Virus record (IMG/VR): IMGVR_UViG_3300045988_099449
Location: 1-6,059 of that record
Source: a virus
DNA length: 6,059 bases
Reading direction: 5' to 3' (one strand)
The position numbers and the translations under genes were made by a program. The notes beneath the pieces are model-generated. The model was not told the origin of the DNA and did no database searches. It worked only from the letters and a program-made list of their open reading frames with translations. Position 1 is the first letter of the stretch. Each line of letters starts with the position of its first letter. Positions 1 through 6,059 of the stretch are shown piece by piece.

Positions 1-55
1 AAGAAGAGAACCAACAGGACAAGAAGCAGTATTACCATCACCAGCGTACGAAGAA
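1..55. repeat. Direct terminal redundancy. Window positions 1-55 are identical to about 6005-6059, which marks a circular genome assembled past its own start with a unit length near 6004-6005 bp.
   Basis: The 55-nt string aagaagagaaccaacaggacaagaagcagtattaccatcaccagcgtacgaagaa is found at both window ends. It lies inside the VP1 coding sequence and reads in the same frame at both copies. Confidence 0.9.
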
Positions 56-438
56 CGGGCTACATGTTGGAGGTCGCTTTCAGTAACATAAGGCAAAGAT
101 GAGGGCACAACTACATCGGTCGATATATCAGTAGCGGCCTTAGAAGATTTGCTTTGCTGAACAACAAAAGACGGAAAATCACGATACAACAAACGATAAG
201 GCACAAAGTAAAAGTTATAATATTGCTTCATTCGAGCAAAAGCAGCCGTATTAAGCGGAGCAGTACGCGAAAAAGTAGAAGCATTAACACGAAATTTGTC
301 TCCTGGCAAGCAGTCCTGGAGGAAACAAGGGAGGATTTCACCACATTTAGAGCTAAAAATGCGGCGTTGTGAGAGGTCAAAGGCGTTGCGAGAAACGTGA
401 TTTTTGACTTTAGGAACGAATAGGTTTTGTTTCGTCAT
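1..438 (-). CDS. VP1: Major capsid protein VP1, N-terminal 146 codons. The ATG is at 438-436 and the frame runs off the window start, continuing at the window end into the 4472..5968 ORF. Joined VP1 is about 656 aa.
   Basis: Hand translation of the '-' strand from 438 gives MTKQNLFVPKVKNHVSRNAFDLSQRRIFSSKCGEILPCFLQDCLPGDKFRVNASTFSRTAPLNTAAFARMKQYYNFYFVPYRLLYRDFPSF... with no stop down to position 1. RN-FDLS and LPGD are hallmark N-terminal motifs of Microviridae VP1. An in-frame TAA at 460-462 sits just upstream, so 438 is the first possible start. Reading the terminal repeat in this frame gives RSSYAGDGNTASCPVGSLL on both window edges, which confirms that the two pieces are in the same frame. 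The ORF is missing from the track because it has no stop inside the window. Confidence 0.75.
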   Translation of the reverse strand, partial: MTKQNLFVPKVKNHVSRNAFDLSQRRIFSSKCGEILPCFLQDCLPGDKFRVNASTFSRTAPLNTAAFARMKQYYNFYFVPYRLLYRDFPSFVVQQSKSSKAATDISTDVVVPSSLPYVTESDLQHVARSSYAGDGNTASCPVGSLL

Positions 439-466
439 AAATAATAAAATCTTTAGTTGTTATAAA

Positions 467-1912
467 TCATTCATAATCTTTGAGAGTATACTTTTCTTTG
501 ATTTTTTTGTATTTAGTGAGGTCATAAAGTCTACTTTCGCAATAACCTTTCCAAGCATAAAAAAAGCGTGTAGTACGATAATCAGAAATGCGAGGAAGAA
601 ACACACCACCATCTACAAACCAACTTTCAAGTTGTATGAAATCTTGCGGCTTTGCACCATCATCAAGTAACTTTTGTATGTCATTATGCTGGTTAAGTAA
701 CTTTTCTAACTCCATACGGCCATAAAATTGCCGAGTCTTAAAGAGATGAAAAGTGTGGCAGTTATGAGAATAAAGCCGAGCACTTTGAAGGAACTTTTTA
801 GAAACGAGGACATCATAATAGACGCTGGAATAAATTCTTTCGGGGTCTTGTATGTCCTTAAGTTTCTCGCCAAACGCCTTATAATATTTAGGATAAGGCG
901 CAAAGGAGCAAATATTATATTCATATATTTCATCACTTAGAATTCTTGCGATTTCTGACGAGCGTCTATTAACAAATCCAACCGCGAGATGATAACGGGC
1001 AAGGCAAAGAATATCATCGATGCGGCCAAAGTCGCGACATCTTGGGAAAACGGAAGCCTTAAGACAAGATGGAAAGTTAAAGGATTGGTCAGAGCCATCG
1101 CACGATAAAGAGAACGAGAGAGGGCAGCCACAGACAAACTTGTTGAAGATTGAACTCGCCTTTTTAATAGTCGAGCAGCCGAATTTTTGCGAGTGTCGCG
1201 CGCGGGATTTAACACCGCTTCGGCAATATAATGGTGAAATACATGCAGAGCCCGACATATACGAAGTAAGGTATCGGGAGTTATTTCCGCGGTAATACTT
1301 GGAAACCACAAAACCATACTGCCAACATTCAGCCGAATTTTCGTACAGAAAAGAGCGTGCCTCCTCGGATTTACAGAGAAATATAATGTGAAAGTGGGGA
1401 CGGAACGTTGTCTCCCCATACTCGGCACAATAAAAGTAACGAAAAGAGTATTTTTTTCCAAATTTTCTGCGAAACCGCTCACGCATACGGGCAATGTACT
1501 GTTGAATATCAAAGACTCTAATAAAGGGTATTTGTCCACAAGAGAAATAAGACGGGAAGCGTCGAACATAATTTTTTGAGATTTTACCGAGGAACTTACG
1601 CTCCTCGATGGTGTGAAATTGTTGTGTAAATAACTCACCCGAATCAAGGTCTACAAGATTGCAAATACAACCATCATACAACAAAGTGGCACGAGGAATA
1701 TCACGATTGCGATATGTCAAAGTAACAAACAAACTGCAAGGATTGTCCAACAATTCCAGCGTACCAAGTTGACTTAAAGCATCAGCAGCATGTACGCGGC
1801 AGTAAGCACACTGGCGGCAAGGTACGAAACGGGTTTGACCATCAGCACAAGTAACCTGAATAGGGTGCAAGCAACCAAAAGACACAAGATTTTTAGGGCG
1901 AGTTACAGACAT
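467..1912 (-). CDS. VP4: Replication initiation protein VP4, a rolling-circle HUH endonuclease of the Microviridae gpA family, 481 aa.
   Basis: All three gpA-family motifs are present in order. Motif I is LFVTLTY at about aa 60-67. Motif II (HUH) is RPHFHIIF at about aa 171-178, preceded by the EYGETTF block typical of gokushovirus-like VP4. Motif III is the two-tyrosine catalytic pair Y-LTS-Y at aa 214-218, comparable to the phiX174 gpA Y-VAK-Y. The stop at 467-469 verifies as TGA. A CxxCxxC cluster (VPCRQCAYC) near the N-terminus may bind zinc. The Cys-rich C-terminal ~230 aa have no motif I could recognise. Confidence 0.85.
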   Translation of the reverse strand: MSVTRPKNLVSFGCLHPIQVTCADGQTRFVPCRQCAYCRVHAADALSQLGTLELLDNPCSLFVTLTYRNRDIPRATLLYDGCICNLVDLDSGELFTQQFHTIEERKFLGKISKNYVRRFPSYFSCGQIPFIRVFDIQQYIARMRERFRRKFGKKYSFRYFYCAEYGETTFRPHFHIIFLCKSEEARSFLYENSAECWQYGFVVSKYYRGNNSRYLTSYMSGSACISPLYCRSGVKSRARHSQKFGCSTIKKASSIFNKFVCGCPLSFSLSCDGSDQSFNFPSCLKASVFPRCRDFGRIDDILCLARYHLAVGFVNRRSSEIARILSDEIYEYNICSFAPYPKYYKAFGEKLKDIQDPERIYSSVYYDVLVSKKFLQSARLYSHNCHTFHLFKTRQFYGRMELEKLLNQHNDIQKLLDDGAKPQDFIQLESWFVDGGVFLPRISDYRTTRFFYAWKGYCESRLYDLTKYKKIKEKYTLKDYE

Positions 1913-1966
1913 TTAAAGTAGTTCAATACGAGTTGAAAAGTAAAGTGATTTAGGAGAAAGCATAGG

Positions 1967-2209
1967 CTATGCGTTGTATATCATATCAAGTTGTTTATCA
2001 GCATGGTGTGAAAGAGCATCAATAGAAGCAAGGTTATCAGTATCCATGCGAGGAGAACTCTCAACAATCGAAGAAAGAAGTGCAGAAATAATCGAAAGGG
2101 ATTTAACAGCATTTTCAGAAAGTGTATTATCTTTGTCAGCTAAAAGACGATTTACAAACTTAAAGACAATGTTTAGGACAAAAAGAAAAACTTGTAATTG
2201 TAGTTTCAT
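1967..2209 (-). CDS. Hypothetical 80-aa protein with a hydrophobic N-terminal segment. It sits immediately upstream of VP4 and may be a membrane or lysis protein, or a small accessory protein.
   Basis: The ATG at 2209-2207 is preceded by an AT-rich leader and a TAnnTTTG motif. The N-terminus MKLQLQVFLFVLNIVFKFVNRLL is long enough for one transmembrane helix, and the rest is polar. It is on the same strand and in the same orientation as all other genes, 54 nt upstream of VP4. An antisense '+' ORF (1974..2258) covers the same DNA. The '-' strand is preferred because every other gene is on it. Confidence 0.4.
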   Translation of the reverse strand: MKLQLQVFLFVLNIVFKFVNRLLADKDNTLSENAVKSLSIISALLSSIVESSPRMDTDNLASIDALSHHADKQLDMIYNA

Positions 2210-2236
2210 ATCTTTGAATTTTTATGTTAGACAGCG

Positions 2237-2244
2237 CAAATATA
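2237..2244 (-). promoter_or_regulatory. Possible Bacteroidetes-type sigma-A -7 promoter element (TAnnTTTG) upstream of the 80-aa ORF and VP4.
   Basis: The coding strand reads TATATTTG 28-35 nt upstream of the ORF80 ATG. About 19 nt further upstream is AATTG, a weak match to the -33 TTTG. This is a motif match only. Confidence 0.25.
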
Positions 2245-2342
2245 AGAACACAATTTGAAATTGAAAAGAATGTATGTTGTGTTTAATATCGAAATTTAAT
2301 ATTATTAGTAAACTTAGCAGATTATAACAATTCACAAGTCTA

Positions 2343-2527
2343 TACGGACGCGCTAACGCGCTATTGCATGGCATACGCCTTTGCGAGGACCGGACGCCCT
2401 ACGGGCTAATACGCTAACGCGTGGGTGTCTGATTGGTCACCGGTTACAGAGACAAGACGCGAGGACGCTAACCGCTACGCGGATATGCCTCCGGCATTAA
2501 CGTTACACGGCAAAAAGTAGCGTGTGA
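2343..2527. promoter_or_regulatory. CpG-rich structured non-coding island of about 60% GC in a ~40% GC genome. It carries short direct repeats and hairpins. Candidate roles are replication origin, complementary-strand origin or another cis element. The function is unknown.
   Basis: No ORF is present on either strand. CGCTAACGCG occurs at 2351-2360 and 2412-2421, each able to form a CGC-TAAC-GCG mini-hairpin, with a degenerate third copy ACGCTAACCGCTACGCG at 2466-2482. GCGAGGAC occurs twice (2383-2390 and 2459-2466) and GGACGC three times. A 5-bp hairpin ATGCC-tcc-GGCAT lies at 2485-2497. AT-rich DNA flanks it on both sides within the 518-nt VP2-to-ORF80 intergenic region. Confidence 0.5.
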
Positions 2528-2727
2528 GTTTTGCATATTTGTATCAAGGGGTATGTTTGACGGCAGTCAAATCCGAAGCACGGACAAAACAAAATTAAAC
2601 AATATGGAATTAACACAAACAGACATCAATATATTAGCATGGGGTATAACAATATACTACATAATAATACCCATATCAATACTAATAGTATCAATATGGG
2701 CAATAATTAAACTAATTAACTATATTA

Positions 2728-3963
2728 CTAAAAGCCAAGACGAGAACCAAACTTAAGAGCAGACACAGCGGCTTTACCATATTTTTTGACAAGGTTTTCC
2801 ATTATCCACCAACTACGAGTCGCGCCACCTGCATTATACATTAAAGCATCAGCAGAAGGAAAAATATTAAAGTACTCACGTTTAGTTTTCTCTTTCTGAG
2901 CACGAACTAAAAGGCGCTGTTCATCTTTCAAATCAACATCAGCGAGAGAACCATAAATACGAGGAAACAACAAAGAGCGTTCCGTAGCAGTCTGAGCACG
3001 AGAAAGTCCAGCAGCAGCGTGCGAGGCATCGGCAGAGCCATAGGCAGCAGCAGTATTGGCGGCATAGTTGGCAAGTTGGGCCATTGTTAATTTTTCAAAC
3101 CACGTATTTTGCTTACGCATATTTTCGGCTTGTTCCTTGGTTAACTCACCTTGTGCAACTAATTGGTCAAGACGAGCCTTTTCTGACGCTTCAGCATATT
3201 TAGCAATAGCTTGTTTCTGTTGGTTATCATAGCCCATGCCTTCGGCTTGTAGTTGCATGATTTGCGTATTACTACGCATTTGGGCAAGTTCATTGGCTAC
3301 AATATCCGAAACGCCTTGCGCTTTAAGGGCATAATATTGCGAGTTATAGGCGAACTCATGTGTTTGCGACTGGTAAAGATTAGCATTAGCAGCAACACGC
3401 GAGGGCTCATTAACAAGGTCGTTTTGGTCTTTGATACCTTGTGCAAGAGCAGAGTCGGCAGTACCTTTAGAGCCACGTGCCTCATTCTCCGATTTTTCAA
3501 CAACCGAGGGAGTTAACTTACGTTCGCGGTCAACAGATATTACCTTTAAGGCATTATCCAAAGAAGATGAAAGGCCGCTTATAAAATTGCCAACGGGGTT
3601 AGAATATGCTTCAGCGTAAGCAGGCGCGGAAACATTATTAGGCGTGGCAGACTGCAAAGAAGATGCGGTACCCGAACCGATTTGACCAGAGGAAGCGGAA
3701 TTATACGGATTTATGCCAGCGGCTTCCATACGGGACATTTGAGCAGCAGGGGAATTATATTCATTTTCTCTATTCCATTGCTCAATGTTCCATTGGTTTT
3801 GCTTCTCGGCCATTTGTTCAGACCATTCTTGTTGCTTTTGCAACATAGCATTTTGATGACGTCTATTTTTAGTTGCTTGACGAGCACCGCCAATGGCATT
3901 ACCAATACCACTAAGCAAAGAAGCACCTGCACTAACAGGGTCGAAAGACATATTAAATTCCAT
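2728..3963 (-). CDS. VP2: Minor capsid / DNA pilot protein VP2, about 411 aa starting at MEFNMSFDPVSAG. The track ORF extends upstream to 4143, but that stretch overlaps the 141-aa ORF and the terminator hairpin and is probably not translated.
   Basis: The N-terminus is Gly-rich (GASLLSGIGNAIGGARQ). It is followed by a Gln/Glu/Trp-rich block, QQEWSEQMAEKQNQWNIEQWNRENEYNSPAAQMSRMEAAGINPY, which matches the conserved VP2 region of gokushovirus and Bacteroidetes-type microviruses (...QERMSNTA...AGLNP...). The middle section is long, low-complexity and Ala/Gln-rich with predicted coiled coil. Placement downstream of VP1 is typical. ATGs at 3963 and 3951 both follow the ORF141 stop and the terminator. 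Confidence 0.8.
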   Translation of the reverse strand: MEFNMSFDPVSAGASLLSGIGNAIGGARQATKNRRHQNAMLQKQQEWSEQMAEKQNQWNIEQWNRENEYNSPAAQMSRMEAAGINPYNSASSGQIGSGTASSLQSATPNNVSAPAYAEAYSNPVGNFISGLSSSLDNALKVISVDRERKLTPSVVEKSENEARGSKGTADSALAQGIKDQNDLVNEPSRVAANANLYQSQTHEFAYNSQYYALKAQGVSDIVANELAQMRSNTQIMQLQAEGMGYDNQQKQAIAKYAEASEKARLDQLVAQGELTKEQAENMRKQNTWFEKLTMAQLANYAANTAAAYGSADASHAAAGLSRAQTATERSLLFPRIYGSLADVDLKDEQRLLVRAQKEKTKREYFNIFPSADALMYNAGGATRSWWIMENLVKKYGKAAVSALKFGSRLGF

Positions 3964-3981
3964 AGTAGTAAAATTTAGATG

Positions 3982-4017
3982 AATAAAAAGGCATGCGCCA
4001 CTATAGCAGCGCACGCC
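3982..4017 (-). terminator. Putative rho-independent (intrinsic) terminator between the 141-aa ORF and VP2.
   Basis: On the coding strand the hairpin is GGCGTGCGC-tgctatagtg-GCGCATGCC, a 9-bp GC-rich stem with one mismatch and a 10-nt loop (plus strand 3990-4017). It is immediately followed by CTTTTTATT (plus 3982-3989). It sits 10 nt after the ORF141 stop and about 18 nt before the VP2 ATG. It is the only GC-hairpin plus T-run combination I found in an intergenic gap. Confidence 0.5.
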
Positions 4018-4027
4018 AATACACAAT

Positions 4028-4453
4028 TTAGTTCTTATCCAGCGGAGCAGGAGCAGGAGCGGAGGAAGATTTAAGGTTAGATATGAATTTATTCCAAAAG
4101 TCTTGTTGCTCTTTTTTGTTTTTGTACTTGGACTTAATGTCATCAGCTTTTTCTGTCAGCCAATTAGCAAAATCGTTGACATCGCTTGCCTGTTGCACGT
4201 AGCGATTAGAACATATTTCAAAAAGTTCATCATCTGATAATTGAATATCGTCAGAGGTAGACGGGTTTGTAATAGGTTCAAGGAACTTGGACAACTCGCT
4301 GGGGTCAAGAGCTTGCAACTTTTTCTCAGAAATTACAAAGTCTATATCGCGCACACGCATAGTAACCTCGGGTTCGTCAGATGATAGAGGAGCAAGTTTA
4401 TACGTCTGAATACTGGTAAAGATATTATCTTGTATGTCGTTTTTGTAGTCCAT
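4028..4453 (-). CDS. Hypothetical highly acidic 141-aa protein, possibly an internal scaffolding protein (VP3-like). It sits between VP1 and VP2.
   Basis: A clean ORF begins with ATG 18 nt after the VP1 stop. The protein is rich in D/E (SDDIQLSDDELFEI, DPSELSKFLEP) and ends in APAPAP. Its size and acidity fit microvirus scaffolding proteins such as phiX B/D or gokushovirus VP3. I recognise no diagnostic motif, so the function is inferred from composition and context alone. Confidence 0.55.
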   Translation of the reverse strand: MDYKNDIQDNIFTSIQTYKLAPLSSDEPEVTMRVRDIDFVISEKKLQALDPSELSKFLEPITNPSTSDDIQLSDDELFEICSNRYVQQASDVNDFANWLTEKADDIKSKYKNKKEQQDFWNKFISNLKSSSAPAPAPLDKN

Positions 4454-4471
4454 AACTTTATATATTATAAG

Positions 4472-6059
4472 TTAGTAAGGAAGTCCGAGGCGGTCAAGAT
4501 TACGAATAACTTGGGTATTAAAATCTACAACGTTGTAAAATTGGTCATAACTTACGCCATCATGAAAATAAAATTTGCCGTCAGAACCTTTAGAAATAGA
4601 ACTGTATACACTAAAGATATTGTTCAAAATGCTTGGATATACCTTAAAACTGGAATACTTAGGCTGATTGTAAAAATCAAGGTCACCAAGTAAACCAAAG
4701 CTTACATCACACTTGCCAAGCTCAGAAACAAGAGAAGAGTCAACACCACCCTCAATATTTGGGCCAAGATTAAGAACAAAATCGTGAAGCATACTATTTT
4801 GAGATAGAGAGCAAACAAAATTGGGTTGAGTACCATTTTGTGACTTATTAAAGTCACCTAAAACGATATCGTAATTAGTCTTGTAGTCATAATAACGAGG
4901 GCCATAACCAAGGTTTTTATATCGTGATTTATCACCGAAATCAAAGGGAGGAGTATGGTAAAGGTCACCAGTCAAGAGACGAGGGTCTACACTCTCATAA
5001 CCGAGTCTATCGTATTCGGGCAAAGCAAAATCCGAGAACTGAGTACGGAGACAAGCAGCATCGTAGCCGACAACGCTATAATCAATAAAGGGCAAAGTAT
5101 AAGTTACACCAATTATCAAACCATGCTCACGAACTTCGAAATCAAAATTACCATTGCCTTGAACTATGCCGTTAGCAGCATAATTAGCAATTGAACCCTC
5201 TGAAGCAAGGTTAGTATTAGTAACAGTGTTAATATTAAAATCAGAGGAAAAGCCGCCAATATAATCACAAAGACCACTTTGCAAAGAAGATACATTTACA
5301 TTAAAATGGGCTTCGATTTGGCTTTTATAGTCTGAATTATTTGACAAAGTAACTTCGAGGAATTTTTGCTTAGCTTGAGCAGCACGGAGCGAAAGAATGT
5401 CAAAGGACTGAACAGAACTATTAGAAAGATTTGCAAGGCGCACTTGTGTACGTTCGACTTTTGAAGAAGGACCATCACCAGCAGAAGAAACTACGCCAAG
5501 GTCGTTATAAGTAGGGTCAAAACCAGCAAGTTGACCTTTAGAAGATGGGGCGAGGCTCTGAATATACATATTGGACAAATCGGCAGACTTAACAGACGAA
5601 ACTGCACCGAATTGCGAAGTAGGCACTACACCAAGAAAAGTATCTTTGGTAAAATTGACATAGCGCATATCGAACATATTAGGCTTATGCGATGCAGGAT
5701 ACCAGCCATTTTTATCATTAGTAACGAAAAGAGAAGCAATAGGAATGTTCATATTGCTTTTACCGGCCATGTAATCAACATTATAAGTATTAGCTTGCTC
5801 GTTTTCCCATTGAGAAAAGCGGTAAAAATCATTATAAACTTTTTGATAAGCAAGCAAAGGGAAAAGACTAAGACGTGAGTTATTATTAGCCCAAGTATCA
5901 TCAGAAAGTACAGAACGAGTAGTTTTGTAATAGCCAAGATATTGCAACAACTTACGAGTAGCCATCATACGAGAAGTGCCAACACAAGTAAAAAAATTAC
6001 CGATAAGAAGAGAACCAACAGGACAAGAAGCAGTATTACCATCACCAGCGTACGAAGAA
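4472..6059 (-). CDS. VP1: Major capsid protein VP1 (phiX174 F-like), C-terminal ~520 codons. The ORF stays open upstream of the listed Met at 5968 through to the window end (the last ~55 nt duplicate window positions 1-55) and is continuous with the 1..438 segment across the circular junction.
   Basis: The 498-aa ORF from the track contains the capsid motif FPLLAYQKVYNDFYRFSQWENEQ, which resembles the conserved P-x-x-AY-x-x-I-(W/Y)-N-E-(Y/F)-(Y/F)-R-D-x-N-L block of Microviridae F/VP1 proteins, here partly substituted (V for I, D for E, no R-D...N-L tail). Translating the '-' strand upstream of 5968 gives ...SSYAGDGNTASCPVGSLLIGNFFTCVGTSR-MMATRK... with no stop and no in-frame ATG, TTG or GTG. 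The track does use TTG starts elsewhere, which explains why it began the ORF at 5968. It is the largest ORF in the window, as expected for VP1. Confidence 0.85.
   Translation of the reverse strand, partial: SSYAGDGNTASCPVGSLLIGNFFTCVGTSRMMATRKLLQYLGYYKTTRSVLSDDTWANNNSRLSLFPLLAYQKVYNDFYRFSQWENEQANTYNVDYMAGKSNMNIPIASLFVTNDKNGWYPASHKPNMFDMRYVNFTKDTFLGVVPTSQFGAVSSVKSADLSNMYIQSLAPSSKGQLAGFDPTYNDLGVVSSAGDGPSSKVERTQVRLANLSNSSVQSFDILSLRAAQAKQKFLEVTLSNNSDYKSQIEAHFNVNVSSLQSGLCDYIGGFSSDFNINTVTNTNLASEGSIANYAANGIVQGNGNFDFEVREHGLIIGVTYTLPFIDYSVVGYDAACLRTQFSDFALPEYDRLGYESVDPRLLTGDLYHTPPFDFGDKSRYKNLGYGPRYYDYKTNYDIVLGDFNKSQNGTQPNFVCSLSQNSMLHDFVLNLGPNIEGGVDSSLVSELGKCDVSFGLLGDLDFYNQPKYSSFKVYPSILNNIFSVYSSISKGSDGKFYFHDGVSYDQFYNVVDFNTQVIRNLDRLGLPY
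6005..6059. repeat. Second copy of the terminal redundancy, a duplicate of positions 1-55.
   Basis: Same 55-nt sequence as the window start. The boundary is uncertain by about 1 nt because the header gives 6059 nt while the printed final line counts to 6060. Confidence 0.9.

Follow-up and report, generated by a model that had tools for sequence, protein, structure and literature searches.

The DNA analysed here, positions 1 to 6,059 of the IMG/VR virus record IMGVR_UViG_3300045988_099449 (the window, 6,059 nt in all), carries an island of short GC-rich hairpins at 2343-2527, in the only long non-coding stretch among its genes. Because bases 1-55 recur at 6005-6059, an exact 55-nt terminal redundancy that is also found in the related genome L083, the window corresponds to a circular genome of ~6004 nt. 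Every recognisable gene lies on the - strand, namely those for the Phage_F major capsid protein (437..1, continuing 6004..4472), a 141-aa protein (4453..4028), the pilot protein VP2 (3963..2728), an 80-aa protein (2209..1967) and the REP_ORF2-G2P rolling-circle Rep, VP4 (1912..467). Since a Phage_F capsid, a pilot protein and a REP_ORF2-G2P Rep are present, the window is by its sequence a circular microvirus genome. The packaged single strand of Microviridae carries the gene sense, and as all genes here are on the - strand, the packaged strand is the - strand of the window; "sense" denotes this phage-sense, packaged strand throughout.

The non-coding stretch spans 2210-2727 (518 nt) and overlaps a possible 50-aa open reading frame (ORF) on the + strand (2604-2756). 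The original prediction, drawn from the letters of the sequence alone, had described a CpG-rich block of about 60% GC in AT-rich surroundings. Measurement lowered the first figure to 56.8% over the 185 nt of 2343-2527 and agreed with the rest: CpG was enriched (observed/expected 1.61), the remainder of the intergenic region had 26.7% GC and the genome 39.8%, and the most GC-rich 185-nt segment of the genome starts at 2344. The repeats that it had listed were also found in place, with CGCTAACGCG at 2351 and 2412 (0.27 matches expected), GCGAGGAC at 2383 and 2459 and GGACGC at 2346, 2392 and 2463, as were its TAAC-loop stem-loops, GCGC-TAAC-GCGC (2350-2361) and ACGC-TAAC-GCGT (2411-2422).

Relatives of this phage were sought in several collections. 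Megablast and blastn searches of GenBank phages gave no relative of the genome and no similarity for the island region, and IMG/VR gave nothing when searched with a single Rep or with the pattern of a conserved DNA block described below. With a Rep alignment, IMG/VR yielded distant microviruses only (25-30% identity), and the GTDB species-representative genomes yielded no prophage. A large protein collection contained Reps 70-94% identical to that of the window, through which we fetched the contigs of the relatives, among them circular genomes (L083, L176) and prophages (L001, L002, L084-L087, L171, L172). The island was compared in the window and 11 relatives with Reps in this range of identity, 12 genomes in total, including L174 (Rep 78% identical).

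Aligned in sense orientation, the 12 genomes had a mean identity of 87% and shared one order of elements, consisting of hairpins H1 and H2, a nearly invariant 30-nt block, H3, the hairpins H4-H11 that fill the island, and a conserved boundary sequence, GTCCGTATA. RNAalifold recovered most of the local hairpins. The search for covariation in related genomes that the original prediction had called for thus had a positive outcome, with the island conserved in all 11 relatives and compensatory changes within it, while the AT-rich flanking DNA and the antisense ORF diverged freely across the same genomes.

All hairpins are given here on the - strand, in sense letters and in sense order. H1 (2572..2584; TCCG-TGCTT-CGGA) has an invariant stem and a variable loop. 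H2 (2556..2571; TTTGAC-TGCC-GTCAAA) contains two covarying pairs, T-A replaced by A-T in five genomes and A-T by G-C in four, which gives the stem versions TTTGAC/GTCAAA, TTTGGC/GCCAAA and ATTGGC/GCCAAT. H3 (2505..2526; CACACG...CGTGT) occurs in two sequence versions among the relatives and has an alternative pairing, GCAAAA/TTTTGC. Within the island, H4 (2485..2497; ATGCC-GGA-GGCAT) has GGA or GTTA loops and appears in L087 as ATGCT-GTA-AGCAT, a compensatory exchange of C-G for T-A. H5 (2472..2482; CCGC-GTA-GCGG), which includes GCGTAGC, has GTA or GTCA loops, or TTA in L002. H6 (2459..2468; GCG-TCCT-CGC) lies within the nearly invariant TTAGCGTCCTCGCGTC, corresponds to the earlier GCGAGGAC/GGACGC motif, and is lengthened in L086 to five pairs by two-sided changes. 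H7 (2425..2453; GTCTCTG...CAGACAC), with a 7-pair stem and a 15-nt loop, is the least certain helix; 86.9% of its cells are paired, and columns 145/163 read T-A in five genomes, T.G in five and C-G in one.

The remaining hairpins lie towards the 3' end of the island. H8 (2411..2422; ACGC-GTTA-GCGT) includes GCGTTAGC and has GTTA, GTCA or GAA loops, reading GCGAAGC in L083, L085 and L087; in L084 and L174 a whole G-C pair has been inserted on both sides (ACGC-GTTA-GCGT to ACGGC-GAA-GCCGT). H9 (2396..2406; GCCC-GTA-GGGC) has two covarying stem positions (columns 189-198 and 190-197) that appear as GCCC/GGGC, GCGC/GCGC or GGCC/GGCC, with GTA, GTAA or GTTA loops. The outer pair of H10 (2366..2384; GC-AAA-GGC-GTAT-GCC-AT-GC) is G-C in six genomes and G.T in five, a wobble possible on the sense strand only. 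H11 (2350..2361; GCGC-GTTA-GCGC), which again includes GCGTTAGC, was found at the homologous position in all 12 genomes with an invariant stem and GTTA, GTA or GTCA loops. The 3' boundary GTCCGTATA (2341..2349) has a similar counterpart, TCCGTAAACAC, in the more distant genome L183. A long-range helix predicted to close the island (columns 47-54 with 247-254) is invariant except in L174; this helix, H3, H7 and H10 are uncertain. As a separate observation, L085 carries an 11-nt tandem duplication, GTATACACTTG, directly after the island (6150-6175); the ends of this contig are prophage junctions.

Across the curated structure of 12 helices, 97.1% of cells were paired, against 27-47% in slid controls in which partners were moved by 1-3 columns. 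Six pairs and 19 cells had changed on both sides, and none of 500 shuffles reached the covariation score. Five of the hairpins share a loop of one kind, C-G(N)NA-G on a stem of 4-5 bp, with GGA in H4, GTA in H5 and H9 and GTTA in H8 and H11, all closed by C-G. Five such hairpins lie on the - strand of 2343-2527 and none on the + strand, whereas 2000 dinucleotide shuffles of the island gave a mean of 0.2 and a maximum of 2. Each of the 12 genomes has three to five of them at the same five positions, and G...A with C-G closure is kept in 57 of the 60 loops, which otherwise differ in length (3 or 4 nt) and in their middle bases. Non-Watson-Crick cells comprised 18 G.T and 2 A.C, the reverse of what the complementary strand would show, which places the structure on the sense strand. 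These results showed that the hairpin structure has been selected on that strand.

The loop type is that of "mini-hairpin DNA", GCGNAGC/GCGNNAGC, for which extraordinary thermostability, nuclease resistance and poor binding by single-stranded-DNA-binding protein (SSB) have been reported, with GCGAAAGC at the primase priming site on the single-stranded DNA (ssDNA) of G4 and GCGTTAGC at that of St-1 and alpha3 (PMC13037366). In the window, GCGTTAGC occurs on the - strand at 2352-2359 and 2413-2420, where it is the reverse complement of the core of the CGCTAACGCG repeat, and GCGTAGC at 2474-2480. Our detector of such hairpins recovered known cases: the annotated RNA primer/complementary-strand origin of G4 (3970-3998) yielded CGGCGAAAGCCG, and the stretch between genes G and H yielded GGCGTTAGCC in both alpha3 and St-1. 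Seven C-GAA-G hairpins on the sense strand and none antisense were found in L034, an unrelated microvirus whose Rep is ~25% identical, also in the non-coding region after VP2 (6400-6860; fold z = -4.1). Because an unrelated phage bears this analogous array, the mini-hairpin arrangement seems to have arisen more than once.

Next to the island, and not part of it, lies the 30-nt block (2522..2551, - strand; sense CCCCTTGATACAAATATGCAAAACTCACAC), where conservation of the clade's non-coding DNA is highest. The block is nearly invariant in 14 genomes, including L089 and L173, whose Reps are 42% identical to that of the window, and recognisable in L181-L183 (31-35%). On its sequence, the block is a candidate for a Bacteroidetes-type promoter on the + strand, a Rep nick site at the (+) origin, or both. 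A promoter would be formed on the + strand by TTTG (2530-2533), an N18 spacer and TAtgTTTG (2552-2559), read against the Bacteroidetes -33/-7 consensus (PMC7366714), and would point toward the small + strand membrane-protein ORF, which is the direction needed for a complementary-strand primer. Both TTTG elements fall within predicted intrastrand stems. Three observations count against a promoter: 5 of 12 genomes lack the TA of the -7 box, conservation is highest in the supposed spacer, and in L174 the block is present and the ORF is not.

For a Rep site, the block offers CCCCTTGATA on the viral strand, which shares 8 of its 10 letters with the phiX174 cleavage decamer CAACTTGATA; a match this good is expected about 0.2 times by chance in this region and is by itself not significant. 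Over the 30-nt phiX174 origin CAACTTGATATTAATAACACTATAGACCAC the agreement is 15 of 30, which is not significant. The original prediction had suggested looking for a VP4 nick-like sequence, and the 16-nt phiX174 origin core was matched neither in the island nor anywhere in the window at <=3 mismatches. Its related suggestion of Rep-binding iterons near a nick site found no support in the island, and the block is the better candidate for a Rep site. CTTGATA was tried as a family-wide nick motif and rejected, having no consistent location in 80 distant microviruses. Whether promoter or Rep site, the block matters for the rival explanations of the island discussed below and does not affect the hairpin structure described above.

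The possibility that the island is an attachment sequence for Xer-mediated integration, also raised at the outset, was right as to the kind of phage and wrong as to the place. At least nine prophages of the clade lie between dnaG and a C_GCAxxG-family gene (junctions 3590-3625 and 9905-9935 in L001), inserted ~60 nt before the start codon of dnaG, which encodes the primase. The host gene beside them is 97% identical to its counterpart in Prevotellamassilia timonensis Marseille-P2831, a strain whose genome carries the attB in unoccupied form (NZ_LT629845.1; L091 4490-4530), and on this sequence evidence the host is a gut Prevotellamassilia. Comparison of attL, attR, attB and the window placed the crossover in ATTAAACA(C/T)AA-CATACA-TTCTTTTCAA, so that the attP core lies at 2261-2287 (- strand; sense ATTAAACACAA-CATACA-TTCTTTTCAA) and the island was ruled out as the attachment site. 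In reverse orientation the core matches Escherichia coli dif at 10/11 positions of the XerD arm, 5/6 of the centre and 5/11 of the XerC arm. The phage is accordingly a temperate Bacteroidales microvirus with a dif-like attP, of the same kind as the Bacteroidetes microvirus proviruses BMV1-7 (Krupovic and Forterre 2011), which likewise have a dif-like site and no integrase gene, and for which dif-like sites were described earlier (PMC3091885); it is the att core, not the island, that corresponds to theirs. We call the site dif-like only, and not a true chromosomal dif, because no GC-skew switch was found around attB within 8.4 kb (L091 1-8480), the skew being positive on both sides and the flanking genes co-oriented.

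The island itself is wholly phage-borne, ~55 nt from the core on the attR side, and the two are separable. In L174 the island is present and a dif-like core is missing even when 6 mismatches are allowed; in L089 and L173 a core is present and the island missing, and L089 has nonetheless integrated at the same locus. Attachment therefore neither takes place at the island nor requires it. The window has a single dif-like site, with no second inverted copy of the sort used in CTXphi-type ssDNA integration.

At the level of RNA, neither Rfam 15 covariance models (2200-2760, E up to 10) nor an ARAGORN scan for tRNA and tmRNA gave a match. A terminator-like hairpin (2668..2702, - strand) follows VP2 and so lies upstream of the island on the sense strand; it has an equivalent in L174, and a scan found none in L001 and L176, where imperfect hairpins followed by T-runs can be seen by eye. 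Since most tetraloops of the island are not GNRA, DNA fits the loop pattern better than RNA.

Several further features of this clade were noted. The 50-aa product of the + strand ORF at 2604-2756, which overlaps the end of VP2 on the strand opposite to all other genes, is hydrophobic, with one membrane helix predicted by eye, and had no PHROG or Pfam match; in relatives the corresponding position is taken by another small hydrophobic ORF, of 45 aa in L001 and L086 and of 39 aa in L087, and L174 has none. A gene for a 98-aa protein separates the 80-aa ORF from Rep in most relatives (L001 3919-4215) and is absent from the window (1913-1966), L084 and L174. The L174 contig (CYGL01001084.1) exceeds one genome unit (~6140 nt), its first 535 nt agreeing at 99.6% with 6141-6675 in sense orientation before the two diverge, and may represent a circular or tandem genome, or else two strains joined into a chimera during assembly. 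A CRISPR array on L177 (1-6993; ERZ1026776 NODE-99; repeat GTCGCACCCTGTGTGGGTGCGTGGATTGAAAC) has 105 spacers, of which 49 match sequences of this microvirus clade, on either strand, and their targets include the conserved block, the H7 region of the island and the attP core; 3 of 26 spacers match the clade in a second array, on L175 (repeat GCTTTAATCGGACCTTTATGGAATTGAAAC).

The element described above is conserved, consists of a set of hairpins of a known stable-DNA loop type, and is independent of the integration site. As to its function, we favour an array of conserved mini-hairpins acting as the complementary-strand (minus-strand, single-strand) origin, a reading that we regard as about evenly poised between right and wrong. 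A complementary-strand origin or primosome assembly site had been among the four options that the original prediction offered with no preference; the origin is favoured here on the packaged-strand-specific structure, the stable mini-hairpin loops and the St-1/alpha3 octamer GCGTTAGC. The hairpins would then act in ssDNA rather than in RNA and serve priming. On the packaged strand the array takes the form of short GC-rich hairpins, five of them of the C-G(N)NA-G type, and by analogy with G4 these mini-hairpins may stay folded and resist coating by SSB. Once the ssDNA is inside the cell, the folded array would show a host enzyme where to make an RNA primer, from which the genome would be converted to the double-stranded replicative form. 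Two enzymes are candidates, the primase DnaG, which primes G4, St-1 and alpha3, and RNA polymerase, which primes M13 and ssoA plasmids.

Several observations weigh against such an origin. Folding of both strands, one of the checks proposed at the outset, showed hairpins of a type and number beyond chance and a total energy that was not exceptional for the composition; the island alone gave fold z-scores of -0.6 to -1.3 on either strand, as RNA or as DNA. With z-scores this unremarkable, we dropped an exceptionally stable overall fold as an argument and kept hairpin type and conservation instead; the wider element (2325-2590) reached z = -2.4. Nearest-neighbour DNA energies (-46.0 versus -48.1 kcal/mol) did not favour the sense strand, a comparison from which mini-hairpin bonuses may be missing. 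Most stems are constant across the 12 genomes and covariation is carried by few pairs, so the statistical weight rests on those few. Relatives with 31-42% Rep identity have no island and instead have other GC hairpins, in some cases on the opposite side of the conserved block; the element is thus lineage-specific, and those phages must prime elsewhere. A comparable mini-hairpin cluster was found in only one of 80 more distant microviruses. Origins of the G4/St-1/alpha3 type have three hairpins (I-III) with one mini-hairpin, whereas the island has about nine hairpins, five of them mini-hairpins, in another arrangement, and blastn against phage records found no alignable homology to known primase origins beyond the octamer.

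The island might instead belong to the viral-strand (+) origin and the Rep step, as a signal for VP4 binding, enhancement or termination near the nick site in which GTCCTCGC and GCGTCC are protein-binding repeats. It directly follows a block that is nearly invariant down to 42% Rep identity and carries the 8/10 decamer match, its motifs recur, and the near-invariance of TTAGCGTCCTCGCGTC, loop included, is what sequence-specific recognition would give. We nevertheless consider this unlikely: L089, L173 and L181-L183 have homologous Reps and the block without an island, the decamer match has an appreciable chance expectation and the longer phiX174 core is unmatched, and the keeping of G...A loops while stems vary speaks for structure rather than a binding sequence. 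A role in RNA would likewise account for strand-specific structure and for G.U pairs, which are common in RNA, and the hairpins could protect 3' ends against exonucleases, insulate transcription units in the manner of REP (repetitive extragenic palindromic) elements or form a small structured RNA, the last being one of the initial suggestions. The transcript could be sense-strand read-through or, in prophages, one from the host C_GCAxxG gene reading into attR. The island does come after the late operon and before the following promoter, is downstream of a host gene on the same strand as the window + strand in prophages, and has some GTAA loops, which are GNRA-type. Against these points stand the absence of an Rfam or tRNA match, the predominance of GTTA and GTCA among the tetraloops, triloops that are not notably stable in RNA, the terminator-like hairpin located ahead of the island on the sense strand of both the window and L174, a favoured strand opposite to that of host-gene read-through, and the lack of T-run terminators in the island itself, so that we assign a role in RNA a low probability.

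Two further explanations seem to us more improbable still. The ~185-nt length of the island and its position ~55 nt from a dif-like core used in integration recall the ~180-bp accessory sequences of cer/psi, and an accessory or architectural role in Xer integration or excision could also resemble the folded ssDNA attP of CTXphi, which integrates in that form according to work cited in PMC3091885. However, island and core occur apart, with L089 and L173 sharing core and attB in its absence, the window lacks an inverted second site, and the compensatory changes reflect intrastrand pairing rather than protein sites on duplex DNA. Accessory sequences of cer flank the XerC arm, whereas the island is on the XerD-arm side. 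The last explanation is a lineage-specific passenger without a phage role, an inserted palindromic repeat or an oddity of composition kept by descent, and in its favour the island is confined to one clade (Rep >=70% identical), other lineages having nothing or different hairpins there. Such a passenger would hardly combine a constrained loop type with compensatory substitutions and a paired insertion in 12 genomes that have freely diverging flanks; L034 has an analogous array; and the search of host genomes that had been proposed for the island found no nhmmer matches outside phages in the ~1.3 Mb of phage and Bacteroidales DNA that we fetched.

Beyond the complementary-strand origin proposed here, a broader scheme can be drawn, which we put forward as speculative and regard as unlikely. 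C-G(N)NA-G arrays on the packaged strand would be a recurrent, independently evolved start of complementary-strand synthesis in gut microviruses, and in this clade the array would cooperate with the neighbouring invariant block, which in ssDNA would refold as a duplex Bacteroidetes -33/-7 promoter, with host RNA polymerase rather than primase doing the priming. If true, an M13/ssoA-like origin would thereby be described for the first time in a microvirus and in Bacteroidota, and the whole 400-nt region would be a compact module of (+) origin, (-) origin, attP and promoter. To our knowledge, the cis-acting replication signals of the abundant gut microviruses infecting Bacteroidales have not been defined so far. 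Our analysis supplies a bounded candidate for a complementary-strand origin whose strand and motif are specified and of which 12 examples have been aligned, tells apart three easily conflated functions in the region (origin, integration site and promoter), and widens the natural occurrence of mini-hairpin DNA beyond coliphage origins. The attP core and the empty attB in the cultured type strain P. timonensis Marseille-P2831 make the question testable.

Hairpin-based complementary-strand origins are textbook knowledge for coliphage microviruses. With the primase origins of G4, St-1, alpha3 and phiK (Bullavirinae), the island shares its position in a non-coding microvirus region, hairpins on the packaged strand and the mini-hairpin motif; those origins belong to coliphages, whereas the host here is a Bacteroidota species. 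In alpha3 and St-1, CTGCTAAG follows the hairpin, and here it lies ~30 nt 3' of H11 (sense 2320-2313); CTG, the trinucleotide at which primase starts, is found 3-6 nt from the hairpin in known origins and ~30 nt from the last hairpin here. The CTG of CTGCTAAG is kept in 11 of 12 genomes and missing in L174, and we treat both observations as leads only. TAGCGT, which we take to be the CS-6 consensus of ssoA, is present in two copies, which sit in stems and linkers and not in a terminal loop. Like M13/f1 ori(-), ssoA, ssoU, ssoW and ssoT, the island is an orientation-specific folded ssDNA within a range of 150-300 nt (PMC4595007, PMC8860593). The placing of the TTTG elements of the adjacent block in predicted intrastrand stems (H2 and GCAAAA/TTTTGC) would add to this likeness; the promoter-like block is however beside the island and not within it, and there is no long imperfect palindrome here.

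The phiX174 primosome assembly site (PriA n') is also an intergenic hairpin region that starts complementary-strand synthesis (PMC9865509), but it is a single ~55-nt hairpin with no similarity to the island that we could find. Intergenic hairpins with compensatory substitutions have furthermore been proposed as minus-strand origins in reekeekee- and roodoodoo-microviruses (PMC9865509), where one or two hairpins of 13-64 nt occur with no reported mini-hairpin loop signature, in contrast to the array with constrained C-G(N)NA-G loops described here. Thus, hairpin origins of the complementary strand were already known from coliphage microviruses and had been proposed in others, and what this locus adds is a five-fold array with a strand-specific constraint on its loops, found in a temperate microvirus of Bacteroidales and cleanly set apart from the dif-like attP.

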